The position numbers and the translations under genes were made by a program. Shown here piece by piece: positions 5,455 to 64,000 of a DNA stretch of 64,000 nucleotides. Positions within the stretch are counted from its first letter, which is position 1; each line of letters opens with the position of its first letter. Origin of the DNA: an uncultured Thermotogae bacterium. Lineage in GTDB: Bacteria; Bipolaricaulota; Bipolaricaulia; UBA7950; UBA9294. The stretch covers positions 14,086-78,085 of the forward strand of contig CAZORQ010000006.1 in NCBI GenBank assembly GCA_964582285.1. Reading direction: 5' to 3'. The notes beneath the pieces were generated by a model. It was not told the DNA's origin. It ran no database searches and was given only the letters and a program-made list of their open reading frames with translations.

Positions 5455-5489
5455 CCGTCGTCCGCCCTGGATGACGGGTTTGGAACACC

Positions 5490-5699: not shown

Positions 5700-5787
5700 T
5701 GTCGCACCTCCAGAAGGAGAGTATACCTCGTCGGAACACCGATCTTCGATCGCGAAGCTCTCAAGCGCCAGCTGGCCGGAGTATCTT

Positions 5788-18959: not shown

Positions 18960-20609
18960 ATGTCGGGGGACCACCCCGAAGGTGTGATATTCGACGAGCC
19001 TGCTGGCGTCTATCGATCGAGCGACAGCGGAGCCACATGGTCCCAGATCCTCGAGACCTGGCCAAGTTGCCGTTCGGTACGCGTTCATCCCGACAACCCG
19101 GATCTGGTGTTTGCCGTCGATCTTGTTGATGGCCTGCTCGTCAGCCGCGATGCGGGAGCCACGTGGGCGAAGGAAAACGAGGCGATTGAGACCGTCGTCC
19201 CAACGTCACTCGTGGTCTCTGGAGAACACCTGTACATCGGGACGCAGGGCTGCGGCGTCTGGAGCGCCGATCTCTCCGTCTCGAGCGGAACGTTCTCATG
19301 GTGCGTCGAGCGAAGCAATCGCCCTGTACCCGCAGTGCACAGCGCGGAAATCCAAGTCGACCCGAACAACCCGAGCACTCTGTTCGTCGCCGCCAATCCT
19401 GGAGGCCTGATGCGGTCCACCGACGGAGGCGTGACATGGCGCGACCGAAACGGGATCAACCCCAGCGTCATTGTGGATGACCCGCTTCGCCAAGGCTACT
19501 ACGCGTTCGCCATCGACCCGACCAACGCCAATGAGATGTGGCTTGGAACATGGGGAAAGGGGATCTACCGATCACATGATGCGATGCTGCTCAACTACCC
19601 CGTGTTCGGCAGCGATCGCGAGATGCTGGGGATCGACATCTACCAGATCGTCCTCGACCCTTGTGACCCATCGCATGTCTACGTTGCAAGCGAGCAAGGC
19701 GTGTACTACACGCAGGATGATGGTATGACATGGAAACCGCTTCGTGCAGGGCTGCCCACCACGCAGGTTCGCACCTTGGCGTTCACCGCGGCCGGCCGCC
19801 TATTGGCTGGCACGCTTGGCTACGGGGTTTTCGCATGGGATACGCGTCGCGCCATGTGGGAGCCTCTCCAGGAGTTCCGCGAGTTCGGGACGTTCTGGCC
19901 GATGTGGGCTGGACGTCCGTTGTACCAGTACTCAACGCTGCTCATCGATCCAACCGACTCAGATACGATGTACGTCGGAACGTTCCCCGCCGGGATCTAC
20001 AAGACGGTAGACGGCGGCGAGCATTGGCTGGAGAAGAACGTCGGTTGGACGAACGACGGCGTATTCTGCCTGGCTTTCCATCCCGAGACCTCGGACATCG
20101 TCTACGCGGGAACGTACAACGGAGTCAATCGATCGGTGGACGGTGGGGAACACTGGGAGCTGTGGGATGTCGGCTGGCCGCCGGAGCAATGGGTCTTCCA
20201 TATCGCGTTCGATCCGATCGATGCTTCGATCATGTACGCGTGCTCGAAGAACGGCGAGAATGAGGGAGAGGGCCGCCGTGGATTCCACGGCACGGTGATG
20301 AAGTCGATCGATGGCGGGGCACATTGGGCTCCGATCACTACGGGCCTCAACCCAGATCAGGAGTTCCTCAGGATTCTCGTCGACCCGATCGATCGCGATA
20401 CGCTCTACCTCGCGACATCGTCTCAAGGGATCTGGATCAGTCGCGATGCAGGATCATCCTGGCGCGAGTGGAACGAAGGGCTCGACGCACGCGAAGCAGG
20501 AACCAACGGAAACAACGTCGCCAATGTGCTCACGTTCTCCGCAGACGAAAACACGCTGTACTTCGGCACGCTCGGCGGCGGCGTGTGGAAGCGGACCGTC
20601 AATCGGTAG
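18960..20609 (+). CDS. BNR/Asp-box repeat protein, C-terminal 549 aa (same frame as 16548..18917)
   Basis: 8 further Asp-boxes (SSDSGATW ... SRDAGSSW). There is no RBS before ATG 18960. The frame is continuous with the upstream ORF apart from TAG 18915-18917. Confidence 0.7.
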   Translation: MSGDHPEGVIFDEPAGVYRSSDSGATWSQILETWPSCRSVRVHPDNPDLVFAVDLVDGLLVSRDAGATWAKENEAIETVVPTSLVVSGEHLYIGTQGCGVWSADLSVSSGTFSWCVERSNRPVPAVHSAEIQVDPNNPSTLFVAANPGGLMRSTDGGVTWRDRNGINPSVIVDDPLRQGYYAFAIDPTNANEMWLGTWGKGIYRSHDAMLLNYPVFGSDREMLGIDIYQIVLDPCDPSHVYVASEQGVYYTQDDGMTWKPLRAGLPTTQVRTLAFTAAGRLLAGTLGYGVFAWDTRRAMWEPLQEFREFGTFWPMWAGRPLYQYSTLLIDPTDSDTMYVGTFPAGIYKTVDGGEHWLEKNVGWTNDGVFCLAFHPETSDIVYAGTYNGVNRSVDGGEHWELWDVGWPPEQWVFHIAFDPIDASIMYACSKNGENEGEGRRGFHGTVMKSIDGGAHWAPITTGLNPDQEFLRILVDPIDRDTLYLATSSQGIWISRDAGSSWREWNEGLDAREAGTNGNNVANVLTFSADENTLYFGTLGGGVWKRTVNR

Positions 20610-47611: not shown

Positions 47612-50600
47612 GTGGTAGGCATTCGAGCTGCTGTGGGAGTCGCTCTTCTGCTGGTCTCGGTTTCTTTCGTGACAGCTCTTGCGCAGGTCGCCGGCCCATC
47701 GCAGATGGACCCATGCGATCAGCAGACGTTCACGATTACGCTCGTGAACAACAGCCCCACCCAGGCAGCGTGCGATATCATCGTCACCGCAACGCCTCCG
47801 GGGACGGGCTTCTCTCATGTCGACGGAACCGCCGCGGTGACCCTGCACGATACTCCGGAGCCCATTGCGGCCGATCCGGTCGCCAATGCCTGGGACATCG
47901 ACGCGATCGTCGGAGACGACTACCAGCTTCCGCCCGGTGAGCAGATCTCAGTCGCGTTCGACCTCGCCACCGATTGCACCGCTGCTTCGGGCAATATCGA
48001 AGTCTCCATAGATTACGAGGACTGCACCACAGCGCAGCCGTACCAAGAGATCGACTCTCTCTCGATCGAGATCCTTCCCGGCGCTCTGATCGTCAGCAAG
48101 ACACCGTCCGTGCAGGATGCCTCCGTCGGTGAAGAAGTGACCTGGACCCTCACCGTTGAGTCGTCCGGTCTCGGGACAATCTCGAACGTTGTGGTCACCG
48201 ATGAACTCGGATCAGGTCTGGCGTACGTCTCCGACACCGGCGGCGGCTCGAACGTCGGTCAGACCACCACCTGGAATCTCGGCACGATCGCTGCCGGGAG
48301 CAGTGTAGCGGTCGATCTGACGGCGGAAGTGATCGCCTGTTCCAACTTGGTCAACGACGCCGACGCGTCATGGGGCTGTAGCAGCCCGGCAAGCACGTGC
48401 TTCGACACCGCCATCGATGGCGGAACGGCGACCGCGTCGCTGAATCTAATCGTCGACAACCCGGCGCTCTCCTTCACGGCGCCAAACGTTACCGTCGCGT
48501 ACTGTACCGATGAGACAGGTGGGCTGGTTCAGATCACCAACTCCGGTACTGGAACCGCGCGCAACGTCGGACTCTGTTGCGACGTCGCCCACTTGCAGGT
48601 CGACCCGACACGCTTGCCGCTTGGAGCGACGTACTCGGATGGGTGCTTCCAACTACCCGACATCGCGCCCGACACGACGTTCGATCTAACCTTCTATGTC
48701 CTCCACTCCGAGGTCGACTGGTGCAACGGTCCGCTGCCGAGTGGTGACAACGTCTTCCAGCTGACGTACGCCAATGATTGCGGCATCCCGTTCCTCGCCT
48801 ATCCCCAGTTCTCAACGCTTTCCTCGGAGCCCGGTCCCTCGCTTGACGTCACGAAGAGCAGCCCCGCGCCGCTGCAGCTCGGCGAGGTTGCCTCCTACGA
48901 CATCACCGTCGCCTACTCTGGCAACCTCGGCTGCTACGGAGGGTCGCCTGGCCCAGTCACGATCGAAGACGACTATCCCGACGGGTTCACCGTCGTCGAT
49001 GCGGACGGCGGAACCGACAACGGCGATACGCTCGCGTGGATCTATGACCCCGCAGCCGATCCTCCGTTTGACCGAACGGTTCAGCTCCGAGTTCCGAACG
49101 ACTGCGCCTCTTGTGTCGGCCTCGCCGGCACGATCGCGAACACCGTCACCGCAACCACGATCGACTGCTGCGGCTGCACACTGACCGGCAGTGCCACGGC
49201 ACAGACGACGATCCTCTGTGAGGGTCTCGAGGACATCGAGCTGTTCACCTCCACGTTCTCCCCGTTGGTCCCCTCCAGTCCGCTGGTGCGATGCGGTCCG
49301 ACCGACACATTCCGTGTCGAACACACCTACGAGTTTTCGAACGACACGCGGCTCAACGACCTCTTTCTCGACGAATTCACCTACTTCGTCGAAGGCAACG
49401 GCGAGCTCCAGTACGCCGGGTCGCTTGCCGTGAGTGGAGCATCGGTCGATACCGTCACCGACGGCACCCCCGCTGGACAGCTCGAGATCCGCCTTGCCGA
49501 TGATGGGAATCCTGTGACCAACCGGACGATCACGCTTGCCTATGACCTGACCTACGTCGATCTAAACGCCCCTGAGGCACCGCCATGCGCCAACGACTCG
49601 GCCAGCATCGACGCGGGCATCGACCTCGACCCTGGGGCGACGACCGTCGGATTCTGTAGCCGAATGTACGGGGATGAAGCCGATCCGCCTACGATGGTTG
49701 TGGAAGCTCCGGCGATGGCTGTCTCGATCGACGGAATCCCGACGATCCAGGAGTCCTGCGCAACATGCGACATTGCGATCACACTGACGAAGACCTCCGA
49801 TGTCGCCAATCCCCACGATGTCCGGCTGGTGCTGACGAACGGCAGCGGCTCGCTGATCGACCTTTCGGGCGCGCTTTGCACCGGTGTCTCACCCACCGAT
49901 GGCACAACCTGCACCACACCGATCGAAGGGACGGATACCTACGAGTGGCGGTTCGCCGACGGGTTCGTCGCCGGGAGCAGCACGACCATCGGTCCGATTC
50001 GGGTCACCGTGCCGTGCGGAGGGACGCTCGCCGATCTGTCGGTCGTCGCCTGGTTCGATGGCCTTTGTCAAGATGATGCAACGGATGACAGCCCCGATCC
50101 GGCGGTTGCCGGCTACGACGATTCCTGCTCTGCGAATGCCTCGGACAGCGCATCGCTGTCGCTCATGGCCGACGTCTATACCCGCAAATCGCCGGAGGTC
50201 CTCTACGCAACGACGAAGTACGTCACTTGGTTCCTCGTCGTGCACAACACCGGGAACGGGGCGGCGTACAACGTCTGGGTCGATGACGTCCTGGGCAGCG
50301 GGCTGATCTTCGACGAAGCGAATACGTTGCCGGTCGGCGCGACCGTCTCGGCAAACCTCGATCACGCAGGCGCTCCGATCAACGGGGCGTCCTTCCTGTT
50401 TGACGAGCTAGCCGCAGGAGAGCTGAAGACGATCACGCTTGCCGCCGAACTCGTCGATTGCGAGAACCTAACGAACGATATCGCCGTCTCCTGGGGTTGC
50501 GGCGGCTCCGACTGCCAGGCGCCGAGGACCGACAGCTCGTCGGTCCTCGTACCCGGGGCACAGGTCGTCGCCACGTCGTTCAGCCCCACCCCCATCGACG

Positions 50601-53600
50601 TCTGTACGGGCTCATGGGCCAACGTCACGGTCAAGAGCGCTGGTATCGGCACCGCGTACAACATCGTTGCCAACGTGACGCTTCCCGATGGGATCGCCTA
50701 CGCGGGGAACCCGCGATTCAGTCTCGATGGCAGATCGACCTGGCTGACAACGGGAATCTCCGATCCAACGCAGGTCGGACAGGTTCTCACATGGACATCC
50801 ACCGAGTTGTCGGTGCTTTCCGAGCTTCCGCCGGGAGAGCAGGTCGACATCCGGTTCGATATCGATGGGGGATGTGATTTCGTCGGCGGGAATCTGACCT
50901 TCCAGGCCGGATATGAGAACCCGTGTGGAAACGCGTTCGACTCCAACGTTGGATCGTTCTCGATCTCCGCCCGGATCCCGGACGTCTCCGTCGCGATGGT
51001 CCAGGATCCGGACGACGCGATCCCATGCGGCGGAAGTGCCACCTGGACGATCACCGTTCGGAACGACGGGCCAGTCTCCGCCCCGTACATCCGCGTCGTC
51101 AGTACGCTCGACGCTGGGTGGGACTACGTTTCGTCAACCGGCAGCGGAAACAACGTTGGACAGATCACCACGTGGATCATCAACGATCTTGGTCCGAGCG
51201 CGTCGACCGATCTCACGATCACCGCAGACTCGGCGTCCGATGGCGCCAGCTGTGACGCCCTCAACCACCAGGTGCAATCGTTCTGGGCCTGCGACGAGAC
51301 TGATACCCAGTGTCTCCTCTCAGCATCCGATACGGCATCGATCATCGGGGCACGGACACCGCCGGTGACCGTCGGCGCCGCGCTTGCCCCAGACTCGGTC
51401 GATGTCTGCACCGACACCACGACGTTCACACTGACCGTAGCCAACGGAAGCGCGACCGCCCCCGCCAGCTATGTCGATGCCCGTGTCACGCTGCCCGTAG
51501 GGCTATCGTACGTCCTCGGAACCACGCAGATCGACTGTGGTTCGGGGTTCGTCTCCAGCCCCGATCCGGCGGTTTCCGGGCAACAACTGACGTGGTACGA
51601 CACGACGGTCGACGGCGGCGCCAACGACGCCTGCGCAACACTCGCAGCAAACGGACAGATTCAGATCCGGTTCGATGTCGATTCGTCCTGCTACTTCACC
51701 GCTGGCAGTGCGAACTCGCGGATCTTCTACTACGACTGCTGCGGCGTGACCCAGACACAGCAGAGCCGAAATGACACGATCGCAAGCGATCAACCGAATC
51801 TGACGATCACCAAATCGACCGCCGACACGCCAACGTGCGGTGAAACGGCCACGTGGACGATTGAAGTCACAAATACCAGCGCCAACGCGATCGCCGAGGT
51901 CGTGCGGATCGAAGACTTCCTTGGAGCCAATCTGAGCTATGTCTCGTCGACCGGTGGGGCGGTCGCCCTCAGCGGCGGACAGATTCTCTACGCAACGCCG
52001 CCACAATACGGCGCGGCATACGGCTGGGAACTCGGTCCACTGGCTCCGCTCGCCTCGACCTCCGTCACGATCACTGCTCAACTCGTCGCGCCGGCCGACT
52101 GCGCCAACGCGCTGCGGACGAACACCGCCGTCACGACTTGGGCATGCGGGGCGCCGGACGGCGATCCGGCGACCGCCGACTACGACTGCTCGAGCGACGA
52201 GTGGAGCTCTGCGTCTGATCGCGTGGCGATGCCGAATCTGTCGATCGCTCCATCGGACATCACGCCGGCCTTCTCTTGCTCCGGAGACGGGATCGATCCG
52301 GGTGCCGAAATCGCGATTGTCGTCCGCAATACAGGAGACGCCCCGATCCAGGCCGGGGACAACTTCACCCTCACCGTGACCGAGACGACCACCGGCTACT
52401 CTGCGACGGACAGCTTCACGAACCTCGGCGGATCGTTGCCTCTTGCCGCCGGGGGCTCTGACACGCTCACCTTCCCGTGGGCCGTCGCATGTACGAGCTG
52501 TGCCTACATAATCGATATCACGCTGGATACGCTCAACGACGTCTGCGAATGCGATGAGACTGACAACGCTGCGGTCCTCAACGAGACCATCACCCTGCCC
52601 AACCTCGCCGTCGATGCGGCCGACCTTGCCATCACATGTGCCGGCGACGGGCAGATACGGATCCAGGGACCGGTCACCCTGCGAAACGACGGCTGCGGCG
52701 ACGCACTGACCGGAACTGTCCGTGTCCGGCTCCGCCTGTTCGACGGCGCCGATTGCACCGGCTCGGAACTCGATACGTTCACGGTCGATTTCACCAGCCT
52801 GTCGATCGCTGCGGGCGGGGGCACGCAGCAACACACCCTGGATGTCACACGCACGCTCGACGCGTGCGGCACCTGTCAGATCTCTGTCCGGATCGAGGCC
52901 GACGACAACGATGCGGTCTGCGAGTGCGACGGGACGAACAACGATCTCTGCGCCGGAACGTTCCCCATCGCGTTCCCTGACCTCACCGTCTTCGACATTG
53001 ACTTCTCGCAGGTCGGCTGTGCGTCGGACGAGATCTCTGGGCTCGTTCGCGTCACGGTGGAGAATACGGGCTGCGGTACATCGGGCCCGTTCACGCTTCG
53101 TCTCGAAACCGACGGCTGTCTATCCTTTGCCGACGAAGCAGTCGCAAGTCTGGCCGCTTCAGGGTCGACAACGGTCGACTTCGCACTGACCGGTTCGTGG
53201 ACCAATTGCACCGACTGTTCCTGCACGTTCACCGCAACGGTCGATCCTGCGGACGCGATCTGCGAGTGCGATGGGACAAACAACGACCGCTCCGAGCCAT
53301 TCACATCGACCCTGCCCGACCTCGAGATCTCAGGCGCCACCGCATTGATCGGCTGCTCGGTGGACGGGCAGGCGACGCTCGATGCCGGCGTCACCGTGAC
53401 AAACACCGGTTGCGCCGACGTGACCGGGCCGTTCGATATCCGGGTTACGATCTACGAGGATGCCAACTGCTCCGGCGCCGTCGTTGACACGTGGAACGAG
53501 ACACTCACCGACGATGTCCTGGCCTCCGGCTCGACCGTCATTTCCCTCACAACGCACGTCCTGTCTCAGGCGCTGTGCGCCGGCGACTGCGATTACTCCG

Positions 53601-56600
53601 CCCGATTCGAGGTCGACACAGGTGATGACATCTGCGAATGCGATGGAACCGACAATACGTTCTGCCTCTCGTCGATCTCGTCTGAAGTACCGGATCTCGT
53701 TGTCACTAATGTCGATCCATCGGTCGACTGCCGGGCGGAAACCGCAAACGTGACCGCAACGGTCGCGAACGTTGGTTGCGGCAATGCGACCGGAGCGGTC
53801 TTCAGGCTGACCAGCGCCGCCTGTGGCTTGTCGATCGATAGCGATCCGATCGACGTGGCGGCCGGGGCGTCTCAGGATGTCGTTTTTGACTACACACCGG
53901 ACTGCGGCGCCTGGAACTGCACCTATACCGTCACCGCGGATCCGGGTGCCGCAATCTGCGAGTGCGCTGGGTCGAACGCGCTGACGTTCGACCCGTACGC
54001 CGGGATCGGATCGATCGGAGACCGCGTCTGGTTCGATAGCGACGGCGACGGCGTCCAAGACCCCGACGAAGACGGGATCCCGAACGTCACGCTCATCCTG
54101 GAGGGAGATCTGGACGGCGATGGCTCGATCGACTACACCACCGAGGTGCCCACCGACGCGAACGGCGAGTATCTCTTTGACAACCTGCCGGCCGGGGAGT
54201 ACACAATCACCGTCGACGACACAACGCTTCCCGGCAGACTTGACCAGACGTACGACGCTGACGGACTCGGAACGGCTCACACATCCGGCTATACGCTTGC
54301 TGAGAACGAACACAACCGTGAACAGGACTTCGGCTACCGTGGCTCCGGGTCCATTGGCGATTATGTCTGGATCGACCTCAACGGCGACGGGGTCCAGGAT
54401 CCGAGCGAGAAGCCGATCGAGAACGTTACCGTCACACTTGAGGGCGACGTCGACGGCGACGGGGTCGATGAGATTCTGACCACGACAACCGACGCAGACG
54501 GACTGTACCTGTTCGATTTCCTCCCGGCCGGCCCGTACACGATCACTGTTGACGATGCGACGCTGCCGCCAGGACTGGAGCAGACGTACGACAACGACGG
54601 ACTCGGAACGCCGCATGCCTCCGACTACGTCCTCGGCTCCGGGGTGGACAATCGGGAGCAGGACTTCGGCTATCGTGGCTCCGGGTCGATCGGTGACTTC
54701 GTTTGGTTCGATCTCGACGGGGACGGCGTGCAGGATCCGGGCGAACCGGGCATCGAGAACGTCACCGTAACGCTGGTCGGAGACATCGATCTCGATGGCA
54801 TCGATGATACCCTCACGACGACCACGGACGCCGACGGCCTCTATCTGTTCGAGGTTCTTCCCGCCGGACCGTATACGATCACCGTCGATGACACGACCTT
54901 GCCGGATGGTTTGACCCAGACCTATGACTACGATGGCCTTGGTACGTCCCACACCTCCGACTACGCGCTCGGCGCCGGGGAGCACAACCGAGAGCAGGAC
55001 TTCGGTTACGCCACACCGGCGCTGTCGGTCGACAAGACAATCGCGGACATCCTCCGGAACGGCTCGTCGGTCGGAAGCACCGGACCGGTCGAGCCGGGCG
55101 ACCTCATCGTCTACCGGTTCGTGATCGAGAACGTCGGATTCGTTCCCGCATACAACGTCGGATTCGACGACACCCTGCCGCCCGGCACTGTGGTCGAAAC
55201 CGCCGCGCCGGGAGATGCCGGCAGCTACGTTGTCAACGCTCCGTCATCAAGTGGATCGCTGGGACTGAGCGACGAGGCAACGTCATTCACCGCATCGATT
55301 GATGCGACGATCGATGCAAGCGCAACGCTGACCGCGGAGTTCACCGCCCGTGTCACGTCCGCCGTGGCGCAAGGGACCGATCTGACCAACACCGCGCACG
55401 CGTTCGGCGAGCGGGAGGACGGAACGCCGATCCCTCCGGAGAACGTGGTCCTCGGCGACACGTCCGACAGCGACGAAGAGGACCCCGATGCAGACGATAC
55501 CGGCATTGCCGCCGTCGCTGTCCTCCAGCCGGGGCTTTCGGTCGACAAGACGATCGTCGACATCACCCGACAGGGCGTCAGCATTGGCACAACCGGGCCG
55601 GTTCAGGCTGGGGACGTGGTGCTCTACCGGTTCGTCGTCCGCAACGTCGGCGGCGGAACGGCGTACGACATCGACTTCACAGACACGCTCCCGGCAGGGC
55701 TTCTCACCGAGATCGACCCGCCAGGAGATACCGGCAGCTACACAGTCACGCAACCTTCTGCATCCGGAAGTCTCGGACTGGCGGACGGCATTGGCACATT
55801 CACCACCTCGATCGCCGCGACGATCGACGGCGGCGAAAGCTTGACCGCTGAGTTCACCGCCATCGTAACCAGCAGCATCGAGCAGGGCGCCGATCTCGTG
55901 AACACTGCGGAAGCAACGGGTGTCGACGGCTTCGGTACGGAGATCCAGGACGAGAACGCCAGTATCGGCGATACGTCCGATGATGACGCCGAGGATCCGG
56001 ATGCCGACGATACCGGGATCGCGATCATCGGAACGCAGCAGCCAGCGCTCTCAGTCGACAAGATCATCTCCGACATCCTCCGAGGCGGTTCGAGCATTGG
56101 GGCGTCCGGCCCTGTCGAGCCGGGAGACGTCATCGTCTTCGAGTACACGATCCGCAACGTTGGGCTGGGCATCGCCTACGCGGTCGACTTCACCGATACG
56201 CTGCCCACCGGACTGGTGACGGAAACGGACGCCCCGGGTGATGCCGGATCGTACGCTGTATCCGGCCCCGCGGCCGCCGGATCGCTCGCGGTCCCCGACG
56301 CTGCGGGCACGTTCACCACATCGATTGGCGCCACCATCGCGGGCGGTGAACAGTTGGTCGCAACCTACACCGTCTGGGTCACAAGCGATATCGAGCAGGG
56401 CGTCGATCTCGTCAATGTCGCCGTCACGACGGGCGTGGACGGTGCCGGAACTCCCATCCCGGCAGAGAATGTCACACTGGGGGATACGTCGGATGACGAC
56501 GCGGAGGATCCGGACGCCGACGACACTGGGATCGCCGTCGTGGCGACCCGCGAGCCAGCCCTGTCGATCGACAAGATCATCACCGACATCCTGCGGAACG

Positions 56601-59600
56601 GATCGAGTATCGGGGCATCCGGCCCTGTGGAGCCGGGCGACATTGTTCTCTATCAATACACGATCACCAACGTCGGCCTCGGGACGGCCTACGCGGTCGA
56701 CTTCACCGATACGCTGCCAATCGGGCTGATCACGGAGACCGACGCACCCGGAGATGCGGGCAGCTACACGGTGACCGCCCCCGCCGCGTCGGGAAGCCTG
56801 AACCTCCTGGATGGCGTCAGCTCGTTCACCACGGGAACCGGCGCCGTCATCGCCGGCGGAGAGACCCTGACGGCGAACTACACCGTCGTGGTCACCAGCG
56901 ATATCGAGCAAGGCGTTGATCTGATCAACATCGCCACCACAAGCGGAACCGACGGCACCGGAACGCCGATCCCGAGCGAGAATGTTGCCCTCGGCGACAC
57001 GTCCGACGGAGATGCGGAGGATCCGGATGCCGATGACACCGGCATCACTTCGCTTGGGACTACGCAACCGGCCCTGTCGGTCGACAAGATCATCACCGAC
57101 ATCCTTCGAGACGGATCGAGCATCGGAGCGTCCGGGCCGGTCGAGCCAGGCGACATCATCATCTTCCAGTACACGATTCGAAACACAGGATTGGCCACGG
57201 CCTATGAGGTCGATTTCACCGACACGCTGCCGCCCGGTCTCGTTACCGAGACCGACGCGCCAGGGGTCTCGGGATCCTACGATATAAGCGATCCATCCGT
57301 GACCGGTGCGCCGCTGCTCGGCTTGAGCGACGGAGCTACAAGCTTCACCACATCGATCGCCGCCACCATCGGCGGCGCAGAGCAGCTGGTTGCCGTCTAC
57401 TCGGCTCGCGTCACCAGCGGCATCGTGCAGGGAGTGGATCTCGTCAATGCGGCCAGGGCGACCGGCATAGACGGCTACGGGACGGAGATTCCCGCCGAGA
57501 ACGCCGCCCTCGGCGACACCGCTGATGACGACGTGGATGACCCCGACGCCGACGATACCGGCATCGCGGTCATCGCGACCATCGAACCAGCGCTGTCGGT
57601 CGACAAGATCATCACCGACATCGTGCGCCGAGGCGCGAGCCTCGGCAGCATCACCGGACCCGTTGAGCCGGGTGACGTCATCGTCTACCAGTACACAATC
57701 CGCAACGTCGGTCTAGGAACCGCCTACACGGTGAACTTCACCGACACGCTGCCGACCGGGATCGTCACCGAGACCGATGCGCCCGGCGGCCCGGGCAGCT
57801 ATGCCGTCACGAGCCCCGCGGCCTCCGGGAGTCTTGGACTCACCGACAACACCTCGACGTTCACCACATCGGTCGGCGCGACCATCGCCGGTGGGGAGCA
57901 ACTCGTCGCGGAGTACACTGTCCTCGTCACGAGCGACGTCCAGCAAGGAATCGATCTGGTGAACGTCGCCATAGCATCCGGCGTCGATGGCGACGGGACA
58001 CCGATCCCGGAAGAGAATGCCGACGTTGGCGACACGTCGGACGCCGACGCGGAAGACCCGGACGCCGACGACACCGGCATTGCCGTCGTGACCCCCGTCG
58101 TCCCGGCGCTGACAATCGACAAGCAGGTCGTGGACATCCTTCGCGGCGGTGCATCGGTCGGCGTCGTCGATCCGGTGCTGTACGGCGACGTCATCGTCTA
58201 TCGAACGACGATCCGGAATGTCGGTCTCGGGACTGCCTATGATGTCGAATTCGCCGACACGCTGCCCGCCGGGCTCGCCATCGAGACCGGTGCGGCGCCG
58301 GGCGCTGGAAGCTATGTGGTGACGAGCCCTACGGCATCCGGGAGCCTAGGCCTGAGCCACGGCACCACGACATTCACCACGTCGATGAATGCAACGATCG
58401 CTGGCGGAGAGACGTTGACAGCAACCTATGCAGCGATCGTGACGCCCGCTGCGCGGCCGGCGCTCGACCTGGTCAACGTTGCCGAGACGACCGGCGAAGA
58501 CGGTGCAGGGACGGAGATACCAGACGAGAACGCCGACGTCGGAGACACATCAGACGATGACGAGGAAGACCCCGACGCCGACGACACCGGCATCGCCTTG
58601 ATCCGCGTCGGAGCTCCAGCACTCGTCACGACCAAGTCCGTTGCGTCCATCCGAAGGCAAGGCATCTCGATCGAAGGCGAGATTGTCGAAATCAACGATG
58701 TTGTCACCTACGAGGTCAGCATCACCAATGTGGGCAATGGGCCGGCATACCATGTCGCCTTGTTCGATGAACTCCCTCTGGGGTTCCTCTACGCGGGGAA
58801 CTCCGATGCGACCTGGCCATCGGGGAGCTCGACCGCCGATCCTTTTGGCATCCCCGGACCTCTCCTGTCCTGGCCTCTGGATGCAGCGCTTGAGGCAGGC
58901 GAGCAGCTCGTGCTGCGCTTTGATGCGTCTGCATCCGGGCCGATCACGCAGACAACGTACACGAACACCGTCACCGCCGTGGGTAGGGACGGGGCGGATG
59001 AGGAGATCCCCTCCGATCAGAGCGGCACCGTTCCTGAGGATGACGATCCAGATGATTCGAGTGATGTCAGCCTGACCGGCGGCGTTCCGGCTCTTGTGAC
59101 CGACAAGGCGATCCTCAATGTGCGCAGGAACGGACGACTTCTCGGTTCGATCAACACGGTAGAGGCTGGGGATGTCGTTCTGTACAGACTTCGAGTTGCG
59201 AACGTCGGCTTGGGGACAGCCTATGACGTCGATGTACGCGACCTCCTGCCCGCTCCGTTCGACTACGTCTCGAGTACAACCACCGGCGAGTGGCCGTTCC
59301 GCACGGGAGCGTATGACGACGACCCCTCCGGCGCCCCGGGTCCGACCCTCTTGTGGGACACGAGCGCCACCCTTGGCCACAACGAATCGATCGTTCTCAC
59401 ATTCGAGGCCGCGATTGCAGGCTCTGTTCAGGCCGGCAGTACATACATCAACGAACTGCATGCCACGGGAGTCGATGGGGCCGGCGAAAGCATTCCCGCG
59501 AACAACGCCGATGACGTGGCAGAGGATGACGATCCGGACGATCGGGATCGTGTGGCCGTCACCATCGTCGAGGAGGTTCCGGCACTGGTCACGACCAAGC

Positions 59601-62600
59601 GCGTGATCGATGTGTACCGTGGTGGAATCTCAACCTCCGACCGCATGGTTGAGGAAGACGACGTCATCCGGTTCGAGCTGACCGTGCGCAATGTCGGAGC
59701 CGCAACCGCGTATCGTGTTGGACTAGAAGATCTCCTGCCGTTCGAGTTCGAGTACATCCCCGGTTCCACACGCGCCGCCTGGCCACGTGGCTCGTCGTCG
59801 ATCGAACCGCTTCCTGGCGCTGCAGGATGGACATGGCGTCTCAATGCAGCGCTGGCCTCCGGCGAGCGTCTGATACTAGCCTTCGATGCGCTCGCCGTTG
59901 GCCCACTGTTCGACGGAAACGCGTACACGAACAGGATGCACGCATTCGGCGAGGATGCATCCGGCCAACCGATCCCGGAGGATCAGAGCCCCGGCGCCCC
60001 TGACGACATCGATCCCGATGATGCGAGTGATGTGACCCTGATCGCCCGCTCGGCGTTCCTTGAAGGTGCGGGCGGCTTGATCGCCGTTCCGATTCTCCGC
60101 AAGAGAGCCGAGGTTCTTGGAGATGCCGTGTGCGAGGGATGGGCCGCAACGACCGATCGTCTCTGGTTCCAGACAGATATTGCGATGTTCGCTGCCTCGG
60201 AACTCGATGGGCTCAACCAAGACCTGTGGGGGCCCGCTCTCCGCGCCGAGACACTCCTTCCCACATGGCTGCAGACAACTCGAAACGAGGGTGCGTCCGC
60301 CGCGCGAGATAATCTGCTTCAGACAGATCTTCTGTCGTCGATCGGATTCCCGCTTCTCGAGGCTCCCCGAATTCGGCAGTTGGCCACTGACCGCAGGACG
60401 ACCGCAGAGATGGCCCTTCGCCAACGATTGGATGCACTTGCCGATCATGCGGGAATCGACGTTGACCAGCGTCCTCTCGATGAGCGGTGGATTTTCCTCG
60501 AATTCGCCGCGGGAGAGCCGATCTACGAGACTCTGCTCGCAGACCCACTCGGACCCGCAGGTGCATGGACCATCGTCGATGAGCAGATCATCGGAAGCGC
60601 ACTCGGCATGGGCCTCCTCAAGCAGGTTCTCGCCATGGAGTCCCTGCTTGCGAGTGACCAAGCAATCGATCGATACGTGGGATGGGTCATCCTTGAGATC
60701 ATCGCAAACAAGCTGATTGCGATGGACGAATCGTTGACGGTCATGGAGAACGGAGCGTCTCCGTACATTCCGCATGCCTATCGCGCAGGGTCCAAGGGAT
60801 TCGTTATCGAAGATTCCGCAAGCCACCTATTCGACCAGCTCTCCCTCTTGTGGGGACTGTCCTCTCTAATTGGGGCGCTCGACGAACCAACGACAGCTTG
60901 GCGTGCAGAGGAGCCAGAGCTTCGAGATCTCCTGCATGAGACATCCTCTCGATTGATCGGTGAGGTCCTCAGCGCAATCATCTCGCGACACGTCGCGCCA
61001 TCCGGAGAGATCATCGACGTATCCTCCGAAGCAGATAGCGCCTCATCGACAGCGAATCTCGGGCTCCTGGTCGTGGCGCTCGATACTGTGCGACAGACGG
61101 TTCCATCGGAGATGGCTCGCCTCGAGCCGCTGCTTCACAGGGCCATCGAACAGCTTGCGCTCCGACAGTCGGATGATCAGCTGTTCGCGTCAAGCGAAGA
61201 CCGTACGCCGGACTTCGTTGAGCTGGGAGCCCAGTTCGGCGGCATTCGCGGCCTACTGGCTGCCTATGCGGCGACAGGAGCAACTGAGCACATCGAGAGC
61301 GCGAAGGCCGCCTTCGCCGCGCTGGACGAGCAATTGTGGGAATCGGAACCCGGTCTTGGGCTCTACGCCAGTTCGCGTTTCGGCGATGCGAGAGCGTATT
61401 GCTACACGCCATTTGAGGTTGGACTGGCCGTCGGAGCGCTTCGTGAGCTATTCTTCGTGGCGCCGGAACAGCAGGCTCTGATTGCCGATCGCCTAGGCGG
61501 ATTCGTTCGCTCGATCGTCGATGAGGCGGCTCTGCAGCTCTCGAACGTCCTCTCGACCGGCGCAGACATAACCATCGGCGGTGGGAAGCATGCGATCTTG
61601 CCGCTTGCTATCGCGGAAGACGCAGACCGCCTGGCCCCGGTTCTCCAGCAACGCCTTTGTCTCGATGAGCCGGACTCGGAAGCCGCATGCTCCGGATGGT
61701 GGGTATCACCGCATGAGCCCTGGTACCAGACGGACATTTCGATGTACGCCGCATACGTGATCCAGAACCGGCTACCGGGCTGGGAGGACTACGCTGACGC
61801 GAATCTGGCCGCTGTCGTCTTCCACTCAGATCTCGGGATTCCGCTTGGCGAAAGCACGCCGTTCGGGCTGGTAGCAGAGGATCTTGGGACGCTTCGGGTC
61901 GATCCGATCGCGCTGCCCTATGCCTCGGGAGGCCCGCGCATCAAGGAGGCAAGCTCGCTTGAGTGGGATCCGTCCACATTCGATACAGCGATCGTCACAT
62001 CGGCCATCGGCATGACGCTTCTTCGCGAGGCACAAGAGATTCGCCAGATCCTTGATGAGCACGCGCCGACGATAGAACGCAACGCGGAGGCCAGGATCCT
62101 CGCCGCTTCGATCCTCGCCAAGCTGAATGCGCTGGAGAGCCTCCGTAACGCCGGACCTGCTGGAGTCGACTACGTCCCGCACGCCGCGCGCTGGGAGACG
62201 ACGGCGCAGCGTCTGATCGTGACCGACCCAACGTCCCTCTTGTTCGATCAGGCCGCGCTGGTTTGGGGCCTGGGCGAGGCACACGCCCTCTTCGCCGATT
62301 CGCGAAGCACAGAGCTGATCGATGAGGAACGCCGCGAGACCCTGGAGATCGTGGAGGATCTTCTGGCCTCGGTCTTGTCCACGCTTGAGGTCGCGCACGT
62401 TGGTCTAGACACTCGAATTCTCATCGATACAACCCAACCCATCGATGGCGTGTGGCATCTTGGAACGACGGTCTCAACGGAGAATCTTGGAGTGATCGCC
62501 GCCGCTCTTGAATCCATCATCGACCAATTCGGCAGCAGCTCGGACGTGGGCACGAAAGCCGTGGATCTTCTGCAGACCATTACCTCGTTCATTCGCACCA

Positions 62601-64000
62601 ACGCGTGGCTGGGCGTTGGGACGTACGAGGAAACGATCGATCTTGGTTCGGGAGCAGGCGCCAGCTCGTGCCAGAATGAGACACTCTCGGGGCAGCTGGG
62701 AGCGCTCCGCGTGTTGCTGGCCGCACATCGGTATCTTGGTCTGGAGACAGCAGCTGTGACCGAAGCATTCCACTCGATTGATGCGCGGTTCTGGGATCCC
62801 GAAATGCTTGTCTATCGGAGCCATCCGGGGCAAATCGAGTGGTGTGCTACGCCGTTTGACCTCGGCATGGCGATCGATGCCATGGACCGAGTTTCCGGCC
62901 TCCTTCCCCCACATGAAGCCTTCATCGCTCAGGAACGGCTGCGCCGACATGCCGATCGCATGCTCGATGCCGCCGGGATGCAGGTACGATCGAGACAGGC
63001 GGACAGCGGGCGGTTTGCCCCGGTCTTCGATCGGAGGGTTTGCTTCCGTCCTGCCGATCTCGTCGGCGGAATCGGATGGGCAAAGGCGGGGGACATCATC
63101 CGCTACACGATCACGGTACAGAACTCAACCGACGAGCAGTTTGTCGACCTGCTCCTTGCGGATACCCTCCCTGAGACAGTCACCGCAATCTCAAGCGACC
63201 CACCCGGAGAGATCGCAGGCGACGTTATCTCTTGGCCGTTCGATGATCTCTACTCCTCCGAGACTCGAACTTGGCAACTGCTAGTACGCGCGAGAGAGGA
63301 CAGCAGGTTCGGCGATGATCTCTTGAACTGCGCTGTGCTTTCCTTCTCGGACCTCTCCGGCAATCCGCAGCCCTCAAGAGAAGCGTGCGCCACAACGTAC
63401 GTTCAGGATCCGGATAGAGAACGTCACGCTCTCATCTCGAACTCGTCAGTATGGTACGAGACCGATTCGGCCATGCGTCTGGCTTCGCTTCTCGCTGATC
63501 TCGCTTGCAGAGAAACAGATGCGTGGGACCGTGCCAAGACGGCACGTGAGATGGCCGCTGCGAATCTGGGCTCTCTCCTTGGCAGCTCGGCCCTCGGTGT
63601 TCCGCTCCAGTATGCTCCATTCGTGTCAATCTCCACCGTTCGACGTGATGCGTTGTCGAACCTCCTCGACATCTACGCCATCCAGGCAGGCTTGCCGCAT
63701 GCCCCGGAGCACATCATGCCGATCTTCCTCCCGTATGAGGGAGGACTGCCTGTTCTTGCAGGAGCGTCCGGTTTCATCGAGAAGTCCGACCTGGTCACGC
63801 CGGCGGCGCTCGGATGGACTCTCGTCGAGGAAGTGCAGTTCGTCGATGCCTGCCAGGGAGAGATCTCGCCGCTCTTGTCGTACTTGCGAGACCTGGTCGA
63901 ATACACGGTAGACAATCAAGTGGAGTGGCTTTCTCAGATGATTCTCTCTTCGAGGACCGACATCACCTATCTTCCCCATGGCCTGCGTGCACCGTTGACA
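47612..64000 (+). CDS. giant secreted modular protein, 5' partial (>=5,463 codons, open to the window edge); NOT in the supplied ORF track
   Basis: GTG 47612 lies 1 nt after the upstream TGA, with GGAGGAGG at 47595-47602. Hand translation of this frame gives a signal peptide (VGIRAAVGVALLLVSVSFVTALAQVAG) followed by continuous DUF11/TIGR01451-like, CARDB-like, SdrD-B-like and helical modules with no stop through 64000. No listed + strand ORF downstream of 47612 is in this frame. Confidence 0.88.
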   Translation, partial: MVGIRAAVGVALLLVSVSFVTALAQVAGPSQMDPCDQQTFTITLVNNSPTQAACDIIVTATPPGTGFSHVDGTAAVTLHDTPEPIAADPVANAWDIDAIVGDDYQLPPGEQISVAFDLATDCTAASGNIEVSIDYEDCTTAQPYQEIDSLSIEILPGALIVSKTPSVQDASVGEEVTWTLTVESSGLGTISNVVVTDELGSGLAYVSDTGGGSNVGQTTTWNLGTIAAGSSVAVDLTAEVIACSNLVNDADASWGCSSPASTCFDTAIDGGTATASLNLIVDNPALSFTAPNVTVAYCTDETGGLVQITNSGTGTARNVGLCCDVAHLQVDPTRLPLGATYSDGCFQLPDIAPDTTFDLTFYVLHSEVDWCNGPLPSGDNVFQLTYANDCGIPFLAYPQFSTLSSEPGPSLDVTKSSPAPLQLGEVASYDITVAYSGNLGCYGGSPGPVTIEDDYPDGFTVVDADGGTDNGDTLAWIYDPAADPPFDRTVQLRVPNDCASCVGLAGTIANTVTATTIDCCGCTLTGSATAQTTILCEGLEDIELFTSTFSPLVPSSPLVRCGPTDTFRVEHTYEFSNDTRLNDLFLDEFTYFVEGNGELQYAGSLAVSGASVDTVTDGTPAGQLEIRLADDGNPVTNRTITLAYDLTYVDLNAPEAPPCANDSASIDAGIDLDPGATTVGFCSRMYGDEADPPTMVVEAPAMAVSIDGIPTIQESCATCDIAITLTKTSDVANPHDVRLVLTNGSGSLIDLSGALCTGVSPTDGTTCTTPIEGTDTYEWRFADGFVAGSSTTIGPIRVTVPCGGTLADLSVVAWFDGLCQDDATDDSPDPAVAGYDDSCSANASDSASLSLMADVYTRKSPEVLYATTKYVTWFLVVHNTGNGAAYNVWVDDVLGSGLIFDEANTLPVGATVSANLDHAGAPINGASFLFDELAAGELKTITLAAELVDCENLTNDIAVSWGCGGSDCQAPRTDSSSVLVPGAQVVATSFSPTPIDVCTGSWANVTVKSAGIGTAYNIVANVTLPDGIAYAGNPRFSLDGRSTWLTTGISDPTQVGQVLTWTSTELSVLSELPPGEQVDIRFDIDGGCDFVGGNLTFQAGYENPCGNAFDSNVGSFSISARIPDVSVAMVQDPDDAIPCGGSATWTITVRNDGPVSAPYIRVVSTLDAGWDYVSSTGSGNNVGQITTWIINDLGPSASTDLTITADSASDGASCDALNHQVQSFWACDETDTQCLLSASDTASIIGARTPPVTVGAALAPDSVDVCTDTTTFTLTVANGSATAPASYVDARVTLPVGLSYVLGTTQIDCGSGFVSSPDPAVSGQQLTWYDTTVDGGANDACATLAANGQIQIRFDVDSSCYFTAGSANSRIFYYDCCGVTQTQQSRNDTIASDQPNLTITKSTADTPTCGETATWTIEVTNTSANAIAEVVRIEDFLGANLSYVSSTGGAVALSGGQILYATPPQYGAAYGWELGPLAPLASTSVTITAQLVAPADCANALRTNTAVTTWACGAPDGDPATADYDCSSDEWSSASDRVAMPNLSIAPSDITPAFSCSGDGIDPGAEIAIVVRNTGDAPIQAGDNFTLTVTETTTGYSATDSFTNLGGSLPLAAGGSDTLTFPWAVACTSCAYIIDITLDTLNDVCECDETDNAAVLNETITLPNLAVDAADLAITCAGDGQIRIQGPVTLRNDGCGDALTGTVRVRLRLFDGADCTGSELDTFTVDFTSLSIAAGGGTQQHTLDVTRTLDACGTCQISVRIEADDNDAVCECDGTNNDLCAGTFPIAFPDLTVFDIDFSQVGCASDEISGLVRVTVENTGCGTSGPFTLRLETDGCLSFADEAVASLAASGSTTVDFALTGSWTNCTDCSCTFTATVDPADAICECDGTNNDRSEPFTSTLPDLEISGATALIGCSVDGQATLDAGVTVTNTGCADVTGPFDIRVTIYEDANCSGAVVDTWNETLTDDVLASGSTVISLTTHVLSQALCAGDCDYSARFEVDTGDDICECDGTDNTFCLSSISSEVPDLVVTNVDPSVDCRAETANVTATVANVGCGNATGAVFRLTSAACGLSIDSDPIDVAAGASQDVVFDYTPDCGAWNCTYTVTADPGAAICECAGSNALTFDPYAGIGSIGDRVWFDSDGDGVQDPDEDGIPNVTLILEGDLDGDGSIDYTTEVPTDANGEYLFDNLPAGEYTITVDDTTLPGRLDQTYDADGLGTAHTSGYTLAENEHNREQDFGYRGSGSIGDYVWIDLNGDGVQDPSEKPIENVTVTLEGDVDGDGVDEILTTTTDADGLYLFDFLPAGPYTITVDDATLPPGLEQTYDNDGLGTPHASDYVLGSGVDNREQDFGYRGSGSIGDFVWFDLDGDGVQDPGEPGIENVTVTLVGDIDLDGIDDTLTTTTDADGLYLFEVLPAGPYTITVDDTTLPDGLTQTYDYDGLGTSHTSDYALGAGEHNREQDFGYATPALSVDKTIADILRNGSSVGSTGPVEPGDLIVYRFVIENVGFVPAYNVGFDDTLPPGTVVETAAPGDAGSYVVNAPSSSGSLGLSDEATSFTASIDATIDASATLTAEFTARVTSAVAQGTDLTNTAHAFGEREDGTPIPPENVVLGDTSDSDEEDPDADDTGIAAVAVLQPGLSVDKTIVDITRQGVSIGTTGPVQAGDVVLYRFVVRNVGGGTAYDIDFTDTLPAGLLTEIDPPGDTGSYTVTQPSASGSLGLADGIGTFTTSIAATIDGGESLTAEFTAIVTSSIEQGADLVNTAEATGVDGFGTEIQDENASIGDTSDDDAEDPDADDTGIAIIGTQQPALSVDKIISDILRGGSSIGASGPVEPGDVIVFEYTIRNVGLGIAYAVDFTDTLPTGLVTETDAPGDAGSYAVSGPAAAGSLAVPDAAGTFTTSIGATIAGGEQLVATYTVWVTSDIEQGVDLVNVAVTTGVDGAGTPIPAENVTLGDTSDDDAEDPDADDTGIAVVATREPALSIDKIITDILRNGSSIGASGPVEPGDIVLYQYTITNVGLGTAYAVDFTDTLPIGLITETDAPGDAGSYTVTAPAASGSLNLLDGVSSFTTGTGAVIAGGETLTANYTVVVTSDIEQGVDLINIATTSGTDGTGTPIPSENVALGDTSDGDAEDPDADDTGITSLGTTQPALSVDKIITDILRDGSSIGASGPVEPGDIIIFQYTIRNTGLATAYEVDFTDTLPPGLVTETDAPGVSGSYDISDPSVTGAPLLGLSDGATSFTTSIAATIGGAEQLVAVYSARVTSGIVQGVDLVNAARATGIDGYGTEIPAENAALGDTADDDVDDPDADDTGIAVIATIEPALSVDKIITDIVRRGASLGSITGPVEPGDVIVYQYTIRNVGLGTAYTVNFTDTLPTGIVTETDAPGGPGSYAVTSPAASGSLGLTDNTSTFTTSVGATIAGGEQLVAEYTVLVTSDVQQGIDLVNVAIASGVDGDGTPIPEENADVGDTSDADAEDPDADDTGIAVVTPVVPALTIDKQVVDILRGGASVGVVDPVLYGDVIVYRTTIRNVGLGTAYDVEFADTLPAGLAIETGAAPGAGSYVVTSPTASGSLGLSHGTTTFTTSMNATIAGGETLTATYAAIVTPAARPALDLVNVAETTGEDGAGTEIPDENADVGDTSDDDEEDPDADDTGIALIRVGAPALVTTKSVASIRRQGISIEGEIVEINDVVTYEVSITNVGNGPAYHVALFDELPLGFLYAGNSDATWPSGSSTADPFGIPGPLLSWPLDAALEAGEQLVLRFDASASGPITQTTYTNTVTAVGRDGADEEIPSDQSGTVPEDDDPDDSSDVSLTGGVPALVTDKAILNVRRNGRLLGSINTVEAGDVVLYRLRVANVGLGTAYDVDVRDLLPAPFDYVSSTTTGEWPFRTGAYDDDPSGAPGPTLLWDTSATLGHNESIVLTFEAAIAGSVQAGSTYINELHATGVDGAGESIPANNADDVAEDDDPDDRDRVAVTIVEEVPALVTTKRVIDVYRGGISTSDRMVEEDDVIRFELTVRNVGAATAYRVGLEDLLPFEFEYIPGSTRAAWPRGSSSIEPLPGAAGWTWRLNAALASGERLILAFDALAVGPLFDGNAYTNRMHAFGEDASGQPIPEDQSPGAPDDIDPDDASDVTLIARSAFLEGAGGLIAVPILRKRAEVLGDAVCEGWAATTDRLWFQTDIAMFAASELDGLNQDLWGPALRAETLLPTWLQTTRNEGASAARDNLLQTDLLSSIGFPLLEAPRIRQLATDRRTTAEMALRQRLDALADHAGIDVDQRPLDERWIFLEFAAGEPIYETLLADPLGPAGAWTIVDEQIIGSALGMGLLKQVLAMESLLASDQAIDRYVGWVILEIIANKLIAMDESLTVMENGASPYIPHAYRAGSKGFVIEDSASHLFDQLSLLWGLSSLIGALDEPTTAWRAEEPELRDLLHETSSRLIGEVLSAIISRHVAPSGEIIDVSSEADSASSTANLGLLVVALDTVRQTVPSEMARLEPLLHRAIEQLALRQSDDQLFASSEDRTPDFVELGAQFGGIRGLLAAYAATGATEHIESAKAAFAALDEQLWESEPGLGLYASSRFGDARAYCYTPFEVGLAVGALRELFFVAPEQQALIADRLGGFVRSIVDEAALQLSNVLSTGADITIGGGKHAILPLAIAEDADRLAPVLQQRLCLDEPDSEAACSGWWVSPHEPWYQTDISMYAAYVIQNRLPGWEDYADANLAAVVFHSDLGIPLGESTPFGLVAEDLGTLRVDPIALPYASGGPRIKEASSLEWDPSTFDTAIVTSAIGMTLLREAQEIRQILDEHAPTIERNAEARILAASILAKLNALESLRNAGPAGVDYVPHAARWETTAQRLIVTDPTSLLFDQAALVWGLGEAHALFADSRSTELIDEERRETLEIVEDLLASVLSTLEVAHVGLDTRILIDTTQPIDGVWHLGTTVSTENLGVIAAALESIIDQFGSSSDVGTKAVDLLQTITSFIRTNAWLGVGTYEETIDLGSGAGASSCQNETLSGQLGALRVLLAAHRYLGLETAAVTEAFHSIDARFWDPEMLVYRSHPGQIEWCATPFDLGMAIDAMDRVSGLLPPHEAFIAQERLRRHADRMLDAAGMQVRSRQADSGRFAPVFDRRVCFRPADLVGGIGWAKAGDIIRYTITVQNSTDEQFVDLLLADTLPETVTAISSDPPGEIAGDVISWPFDDLYSSETRTWQLLVRAREDSRFGDDLLNCAVLSFSDLSGNPQPSREACATTYVQDPDRERHALISNSSVWYETDSAMRLASLLADLACRETDAWDRAKTAREMAAANLGSLLGSSALGVPLQYAPFVSISTVRRDALSNLLDIYAIQAGLPHAPEHIMPIFLPYEGGLPVLAGASGFIEKSDLVTPAALGWTLVEEVQFVDACQGEISPLLSYLRDLVEYTVDNQVEWLSQMILSSRTDITYLPHGLRAPLT
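52232..53995 (+). repeat. 5 tandem CARDB-like modules (339-378 nt units)
   Basis: Units begin with P(N/D)L at 52232, 52598, 52976, 53315 and 53690. Each ends in (V/I)CEC(D/A)x(T/S)(D/N)N. Confidence 0.75.
54002..55009 (+). repeat. 3 tandem SdrD-B-like modules (~340 nt units)
   Basis: GSIGD(R/Y/F)VW(F/I)D(S/L)(D/N)GDGVQDP...TTD(A)DG(E/L)YLF(D/E)xLPAG(E/P)YTITVDD(T/A)TLP... occurs three times. Confidence 0.8.
55010..60045 (+). repeat. 10 tandem DUF11/TIGR01451-type modules; period 513 nt for most units
   Basis: The (V/I)DK/TTK anchor codons fall at 55028, 55541, 56054, 56567, 57080, 57599, 58115, 58628, 59099 and 59591. Each unit ends with an acidic linker such as GDTSDDDAEDPDADDTGIA. Confidence 0.85.

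Follow-up and report, generated by a model that had tools for sequence, protein, structure and literature searches.

A giant CLIPPER-rich protein of Bipolaricaulota, probably a surface fibre, carries three C-terminal six-hairpin barrels

The stretch of DNA analysed here (the window, 64,000 nt; positions 14,086 to 78,085 of contig CAZORQ010000006.1, assembly GCA_964582285.1) ends inside a giant gene of 17.2 kb, which starts at GTG 47612 on the plus strand and encodes 5,720 residues. The product is probably a secreted, very acidic, fibrillar-adhesin-type surface fibre of a Bipolaricaulota (Acetothermia) bacterium, with barrels that bind or modify glycan. It is composed of a signal-like peptide, about 30 immunoglobulin (Ig)-like β-sandwich modules and a cassette of three helical barrels with a CLIPPER domain between barrels 2 and 3 (Table 1). 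The β-sandwich part begins with a Cys-rich CLIPPER-like region, which is followed by five CARDB, three SdrD_B and ten CLIPPER modules. The one unusual feature of the protein is its C-terminal trio of sugar-enzyme-like helical barrels, which belong to no curated family. The gene itself is already known, having been called and domain-annotated by public pipelines. New are the recognition of a conserved, syntenic Bipolaricaulota family of isopeptide-type surface fibres of 4,600-5,700 residues, and an undescribed six-hairpin barrel domain family with about 480 representatives, present in three tandem copies in the giant protein. An early study of Bipolaricaulota genomes reported no surface adhesins (PMC6092417).

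Translation of the window from GTG 47612 to base 64000 gives 5,463 codons with zero stops, and the nearest in-frame stop on the 5' side is TGA 47588-47590, both as in the original prediction, which had been made from the letters of the window. At about 62% G+C, approximately 2.9% of random codons are stops (about one per 34 codons), and from this frequency the chance of 5,463 open codons in random sequence is ~e^-160. The G+C content by codon position (63/50/74%) is a typical coding signature. The sequence also agrees with the predicted ribosome-binding site and with the start 1 nt after the preceding gene, whose TGA occupies 47608-47610. Beyond 47.6 kb, the track of open reading frames (ORFs) contains no plus-strand ORF of at least 150 residues in frame 2, the frame of the giant gene. 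The gene is absent from this track because the ORF lister omits ORFs running off its source, an omission that had been suspected and that the tool itself states. The "unlisted" status claimed for the gene is a listing rule without biological meaning, and the gene calls publicly available for the source contig include a product of 5,720 residues with these Pfam domains. With this false alarm removed, the lesson for annotation is that ORFs running off a window edge need listing. Antisense ORFs of up to 551 residues occur inside the giant gene (minus strand, 48812-62950, for example 53330-54985 and 51503-52834); they are not genes, and G+C-rich third codon positions are expected to produce such ORFs.

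The full length of the gene is given by other assemblies. On the 121,346-bp JGI contig Ga0310068_1000167, a gene with the matching start is called at 5,720 residues with matches to CLIPPER (PF01345), CARDB and SdrD_B, and the same product is present on a 27,290-bp ENA contig and a 22,947-bp JGI contig, making three independent assemblies in total. Thus, the window holds 5,463 of the 5,720 codons and is 257 short. In agreement with this call, the last residue in the window maps 255-275 residues before the stop of the closest orthologues. The gene had been described as unfinished; it does run off the window edge, and it is not open-ended, the stop lying 257 codons beyond. Sequence-based statements cover the first 5,463 residues, the last 257 codons being known in number with their letters not read. 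An exact 50-mer from the window end had no match in the JGI metagenome collection, and contigs with the conserved downstream gene family (P0288 look-up) showed no nucleotide similarity to the window.

The N-terminal peptide, VVGIRAAVGVALLLVSVSFVTALA followed by QVAG, is the sole strongly hydrophobic 19-residue stretch of the giant protein, and the mature N-terminus Q-V-A-G-P-x-Q-M/L-x-x-C-D is kept in the orthologues. Judged by eye from this hydrophobicity and from the ALA/Q site, the N-terminus is signal-like and is predicted to direct secretion. The signal peptide had been recognised in the original prediction, with its sequence written one V shorter than the VVGIRAAV... that the window encodes. 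The protein contains 9.9% Asp and 0.6% Lys and has an isoelectric point (pI) of about 4. A salt-in halophilic origin of this acidic, Lys-poor composition was rejected, the cytoplasmic proteins encoded in the window having a pI of 5-6 or above 9.

The DUF11 family has been renamed CLIPPER, and crystallography of one domain (9IFR) has shown an isopeptide bond between K715 and N806; the bond confers thermal and protease resistance, and CLIPPER domains typically build the stalks of fibrillar adhesins (bioRxiv 10.1101/2025.04.25.650565). In the giant protein, a hidden Markov model (HMM) built on its own repeats recovers exactly the ten tandem repeats of about 171 residues that had been read by eye. 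Every repeat has exactly one Lys, located in a PALxVDK motif, and K9, D31, D54 and N127 are invariant across all ten, which also carry an acidic linker of the EDPDADDTG type. PF01345 matches three segments of the protein with 176, 225 and 27 bits (cut-off 24.6), TIGR01451 of NCBIfam scores 89-131 bits (cut-off 24), and the isopeptide-forming domain TIGR04226 of NCBIfam 55-63 bits (cut-off 30). When the domain at residues 154-263 was aligned to 9IFR, K163 fell on K715 and N248 on N806, and D197 aligned with the Asp of the 9IFR "ND-TLG" motif (triad K715, D748, N806; the numbering of the Asp is off by one). From these features we infer Lys-Asn isopeptide bonds in the CLIPPER domains of the giant protein.

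The remaining β-sandwich modules are of several kinds. Pfam DUF11, CARDB and SdrD_B match far above their cut-offs, as had been anticipated, and the self-built HMMs give the five CARDB-like and three SdrD_B modules of the original prediction. The count of about 11 DUF11-like modules in the N-terminal region is plausible in that all of it appears to be β-sandwich; Pfam tiles recognise only about 6-8 DUF11 domains in the first 1,540 residues and nothing at residues ~520-860. An AlphaFold model of residues 517-862 is all-β, with a predicted local distance difference test (pLDDT) score of 68, and its top Foldseek matches are AgI/II C-terminal domains, SspB and MSCRAMM N2N3 domains, so that adhesin-type Ig-like domains can be proposed here with moderate confidence only. 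The counts of ten, five and three come from HMMs built on the repeats of the giant protein itself. BLAST self-comparisons missed both the barrel and the stalk repeats, which iterated HMMs detected. Tandem Repeats Finder reported a period of 336 in the SdrD_B region; its longest period is 500, which puts the 513-nt repeat out of its reach.

The C-terminal part had been described as more than 1,300 residues of non-repetitive, helix-rich sequence. It is helix-rich, and it is repetitive: an iterated HMM detects two full modules of about 505 positions and a divergent third, in all three barrels of about 500 residues. The third module is complete in the orthologues. Pfam also places a DUF11 domain at the further DUF11-like module predicted at about 63.05-63.4 kb. 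Modules 1 and 2 share 27% identity. The AlphaFold model of module 2 has 12 helices (pLDDT 86, predicted template modelling score 0.90), and its best Foldseek matches in the PDB are glucose and cellobiose 2-epimerases, N-acylglucosamine 2-epimerase (AGE), YihS and GH76 mannanases (probability 1.0, E = 9e-8 to 1e-5, template modelling (TM) score ~0.5, ~12% identity over ~350-390 aligned columns); GH116 is also among the enzyme matches. A search of the PDB with the barrel sequence profile found cellobiose 2-epimerase and GH76 at E ~1e-3, over 35-85 residues around helices 9-11. In contrast to these resemblances, no Pfam family matched any barrel module at E <= 10 and no NCBIfam family matched them. 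The barrel profile retrieved 482 representatives among 1.84 billion proteins, including giant proteins and single-module secreted proteins of about 600 residues, one of which has a type IX secretion tail. When 125 barrel modules were compared, a conservation of at least 80% was reached mostly by Gly, Pro, Leu and Trp residues and, beyond these, by Tyr166 and Asp191; neither a His pair of the AGE type nor an Asp-Asp pair of the GH76 type was among them. Membership of the AGE or GH76 family is therefore unsupported despite the common fold, and in a separate test against GH76 (no Pfam GH76 match, no conserved adjacent Asp-Asp) the similarity proved to be one of fold only.

Cys pairs flank the barrels at residues 4174/4683 (60131-60133/61658-61660) and 4693/5144 (61688-61690/63041-63043). 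One Cys of the pair lies near the first strand and the other near the last, and the model pairs the two strands with each other (E8-10, E455-459), which suggests that the conserved Cys pair would form a disulfide stapling the termini of each barrel.

In the reading that we favour, the β-sandwich modules would make up a long stalk resistant to mechanical force and to proteolysis, its CLIPPER domains stapled by spontaneous Lys-Asn isopeptide bonds and its Cys-rich modules by disulfides, with Ca2+ probably bound by the acidic linkers and SdrD_B units. The polysaccharide ligand that the barrels at its end would bind or modify may lie on a substrate, a partner cell or the sheath of the cell itself.

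A less likely though serious possibility is that the giant protein is primarily a surface-displayed carbohydrate-active enzyme, whose three barrels would be catalytic, as members of a new family of hydrolases, lyases or epimerases, and whose β-sandwich array would be a mere spacer keeping them at a distance from the cell. The best structural matches of the barrel are all enzymes (2-epimerases, the YihS isomerase, GH76 and GH116), the profile matches are to cellobiose 2-epimerase and GH76, and Asp191, Tyr166 and two Trp residues are conserved in the wider barrel family, which also contains single-module secreted homologues. Against this reading, neither a His pair nor an Asp-Asp pair reaches 80% conservation, the barrels share about 12% of their residues with any enzyme at a TM score of just ~0.5, and no enzyme family of Pfam or NCBIfam is recognised even at E = 10. 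Moreover, three tandem copies, the third of them divergent, fit avidity as well as catalysis. We regard it as similarly doubtful, and worth stating, that the barrel represents a new extracellular carbohydrate-active enzyme family with a catalytic centre around an Asp191/Tyr166/Trp pocket, carried in Bipolaricaulota in three copies on an isopeptide-stapled stalk of about 600 kDa. If this were true, a sheath-enclosed anaerobe would cut or remodel polysaccharide at a distance from the cell body, whether the polysaccharide belongs to a substrate, to a cell nearby or to its own toga. The ligand or activity of the barrel family is a concrete, testable question.

Full-length, collinear orthologues of the giant protein have 4,634-5,693 residues and keep its domain order, and all relatives of its C-terminal region are in metagenome-assembled genomes (MAGs) of the Bipolaricaulota/Acetothermia type. 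The closest orthologue, P0018 (5,154 residues), shares 70% identity in the N-terminal region, 74% in the CARDB and 69% in the SdrD_B modules, 61% in the CLIPPER array and 44% in the barrel region. Repeat numbers differ among the orthologues, from 0 to 7 for SdrD_B and from 5 to 10 for CLIPPER. In two distant Acetothermia homologues (L008 and L009), a Gly/Ser-rich stretch takes the place of the third barrel and is followed by a hydrophobic helix with a basic tail (…LLVIMGLLAVYLHLLSARKM); this C-terminus resembles a sorting or anchor signal.

Among the features that define fibrillar adhesins, a secretion signal (by eye) and tandem stalk domains are present in the giant protein, and an anchor was not found. 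Several observations weigh against its assignment as an adhesin-like fibre. In the 5,463 of 5,720 residues read, an LPXTG motif is absent and the signal is the one transmembrane-like segment, and the C-termini of the close orthologues have no hydrophobic tail or transmembrane helix; the final 257 residues of the giant protein are known by number alone. No recognised adhesive Pfam domain is present, leaving as candidate adhesive parts the barrels and the MSCRAMM/AgI-II-like residues 517-862 of the moderate-confidence model. Compared with the closest orthologue, conservation is lowest in the barrel region (44%; N-terminal region, 70%), and the glycan binding or catalysis by the barrels is only putative, Tyr166 and Asp191 being the sole conserved polar residues in the 125 modules. 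In addition, the isopeptide bonds, the disulfides and the bound Ca2+ are all predictions from sequence.

The Bipolaricaulota have a toga-like sheath with an S-layer (bioRxiv 10.1101/2025.11.21.689855; PMC6092417), and the giant protein could instead be a structural part of the cell envelope, i.e. a tether, spacer or sheath-associated fibre of this outer layer with no external target. This is improbable. The existence of such a sheath, the conservation and synteny of the gene across the MAGs of the phylum and the hydrophobic helix with basic residues that follows directly after barrel 2 in L008 and L009 would all suit an envelope component. Nevertheless, a structural role in the toga is less likely than an adhesin-like fibre because the repeat numbers vary freely, as is typical for adhesins and unlike spacers of fixed length. 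In addition, the giant protein has no S-layer-homology motifs and no membrane-anchor motifs, and the neighbouring genes encode other adhesin-like repeat proteins.

The giant frame is one continuous, intact and real gene. Three contigs are identical to the window over 43.6-57.6 kb, and the 121-kb contig differs from it by 3 mismatches over 22 kb. The exact product of the upstream neighbour (start 45616) is recorded on eight contigs. The longest exact match between any two of the 171-residue repeat units is 32 nt, and their highest DNA identity is 72%. Collapse or chimerism of the assembly is unlikely because the independent contigs agree and the repeat units have diverged, which largely removes the concern about mis-assembly raised originally. 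Tandem repeats in the gene and the long spurious ORFs that G+C-rich DNA yields, such as the antisense ORFs of up to 551 residues, could suggest that the frame is open by chance, that the gene is a pseudogene or that the assembly is chimeric or collapsed. However, such an artefact is effectively refuted by 5,463 open codons against an expected stop every ~34 codons, by domain matches along the whole length, by four independent contigs that agree (0-3 mismatches over 14-22 kb) together with the 5,720-residue product in three assemblies, and by repeats too diverged to collapse in a gene with collinear orthologues.

The thioester domain of macroglobulins is also an (α/α)6 barrel, the repeats have sub-threshold Pfam matches to bMG10 and MG4, and one single-module relative has a faint TED_complement match (E = 0.087). 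These observations could point to a protease trap resembling α-2-macroglobulin, built from β-sandwich macroglobulin (MG) domains and such a barrel. This reading is rejected as having next to no likelihood: the MG matches do not reach the cut-off and coincide with stronger DUF11 matches, no thioester-domain structure is among the top 50 fold matches, and the 5,463 residues contain no CxEQ thioester motif.

Among known systems, the giant protein is most readily compared with the CLIPPER fibrillar adhesins of the type of Acinetobacter silvestris B9T28_05395 (9IFR), with which it shares a signal peptide, long CLIPPER arrays mixed with SdrD_B and CARDB, and a Lys/Asp/Asn triad in register with that of the isopeptide seen in the crystal. 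In contrast to them, it has no recognised anchor or adhesive domain and belongs to the Bipolaricaulota, and its triple (α/α)6 barrel cassette is unreported among the neighbours of CLIPPER in a recent survey (bioRxiv 10.1101/2025.04.25.650565). With the 2-epimerase superfamily (AGE, PF07221) and GH76, the barrels share the twelve-helix ("six-hairpin") fold and weak profile similarity in helices 9-11. However, identity is ~12% with a TM score of ~0.5, there is no evident conservation of the catalytic His or Asp-Asp residues, and the barrels of the giant protein are predicted to be extracellular, occur in three copies and are each bracketed by a Cys pair. The three SdrD_B repeats (187 bits in Pfam) appear to be a stalk element as in the Staphylococcus MSCRAMM adhesins SdrC/SdrD, whereas the NCBIfam matches are partial and score far below the cut-offs for full-length SdrC/SdrD (140 against 1700 bits), and the A-domain, the SD repeat and LPXTG are absent from the giant protein. 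The Aureispira grappling-hook protein GhpA (9FLP, 5,898 residues), also a giant surface fibre and of similar size, is the sole solved structure matched by the profile of the 171-residue repeats (E = 1.4e-7). Only two DUF11-type domains are similar, and the remaining architecture is unrelated; nothing in the giant protein points to a hook or a predatory role.

With respect to size, the original prediction placed the gene in the class of the largest bacterial genes, which overstates 5,720 residues when predicted bacterial proteins reach 85,804 residues (bioRxiv 10.1101/2023.11.21.568195). UniProtKB contains more than 41,000 proteins above 5,000 residues (PMC11573180). The giant protein is large but ordinary in kind and is not near the size record. 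The giant genes of the Omnitrophota and other bacteria (West-Roberts et al. 2023, bioRxiv 10.1101/2023.11.21.568195) likewise encode secreted proteins of great length, with repeats and with domains related to attachment and to carbohydrates. As described there, however, those proteins exceed 30,000 residues and have many transmembrane regions and often SecA/DEAD domains, whereas the protein described here, at 5,720 residues, is far from that length and has no internal transmembrane segment.

Table 1. Positions of the giant gene, its predicted domains and its neighbours (window coordinates unless a locus is named)
Feature	Position	Strand	Basis or remark
Shine-Dalgarno-like GGAGGAGG	47595-47602	+	9 nt 5' of the start codon of the giant gene; read from sequence
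Giant gene, codons 1-5,463 of 5,720	47612-64000	+	Stop ~771 nt past the window
Signal-peptide-like N-terminus, aa 1-24, ...VTALA/QVAG	47612-47683	+	Hydrophobicity, orthologue conservation
Cys-rich N-terminal region, aa 25-1540, 50 Cys, tandem β-sandwich modules	47684-52231	+	Pfam tiles, Cys positions
Best-scoring N-terminal CLIPPER (DUF11) domain, aa 159-253	48086-48370	+	Pfam DUF11
Pfam-silent stretch, aa 517-862, two predicted all-β adhesin-type Ig-like domains	49160-50197	+	AlphaFold and Foldseek
Five CARDB-like Cys-rich modules, aa 1541-2130	52232-54001	+	Pfam CARDB 119 bits; self-built HMM, five units
Three SdrD_B modules, aa 2131-2466	54002-55009	+	Pfam SdrD_B 187 bits, 3 stretches; self-built HMM
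Ten tandem ~171-aa CLIPPER (DUF11) repeats, aa 2467-4145	55010-60046	+	Self-built HMM; Pfam DUF11, 10 stretches
(α/α)6 barrel module 1, aa 4170-4692	60119-61687	+	Family HMM E = 4e-159
(α/α)6 barrel module 2, aa 4689-5153	61676-63070	+	Family HMM; AlphaFold; Foldseek
Single CLIPPER (DUF11) domain between barrels 2 and 3, aa ~5158-5241	63083-63334	+	Pfam DUF11 27 bits, TIGR01451
Divergent barrel module 3, aa 5271-5463 of ~5271-5720, cut by the window	63422-64000	+	Family HMM E = 4e-24, positions 11-198
664-aa Big_9 + SdrD_B secreted protein	45616-47610	+	Stop 1 nt before the giant gene
2,655-aa protein, 23 tandem Big_9/cadherin-like repeats, pI ~4	37330-45297	+	Pfam; second very long gene upstream
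~380-aa downstream gene in orthologous loci	L001 14851-15984; L002 14876-16063; L007 14921-16069; L012 21236-22432		No Pfam match

The gene order around the giant gene is conserved, with genes for Big_9/cadherin-type repeat proteins directly upstream and, in the orthologous loci, a gene of about 380 codons without a Pfam match directly downstream. In some genomes, the product of this downstream gene is fused to CLIPPER_2/DUF11 domains. The 664-residue upstream neighbour starts at 45616 in public gene calls and not at the longest-ORF start 45547. The 1-nt gap between its stop and the start of the giant gene suggests translational coupling, and the orthologous locus L012 is arranged in the same way.

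Scans of the window with Rfam and for tRNAs found nothing, and a promoter/terminator scan gave fewer sites than in shuffled sequence. The PrfB protein encoded in the window matches a protein of the 121-kb contig Ga0310068_1000167 at 100% identity and has its nearest named relatives in Candidatus Bipolaricaulota (71-75% identity). In the release-factor-2 gene (13262-14356, minus strand), a short frame-0 ORF (ATG CAC ... TGC GTT TGA C) ends in UGA, and a +1 shift joins it to an ORF of 329 residues beginning with MANPGFW; many homologues are annotated with 348-364 residues. Judging from this arrangement, its expression apparently requires programmed +1 frameshifting. Two adjacent genes on the plus strand (16548-18917 and 18960-20609) encode β-propeller proteins of the BNR/Asp-box, Sortilin-Vps10 type, which may be further secreted glycan-related proteins. 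Finally, an 816-residue protein (33767-36217, minus strand) combines NosD/right-handed β-helix repeats with an OpuAC-type substrate-binding domain, and the gene for this fusion is adjoined by those for a GGDEF/HAMP protein and an S8 subtilase.

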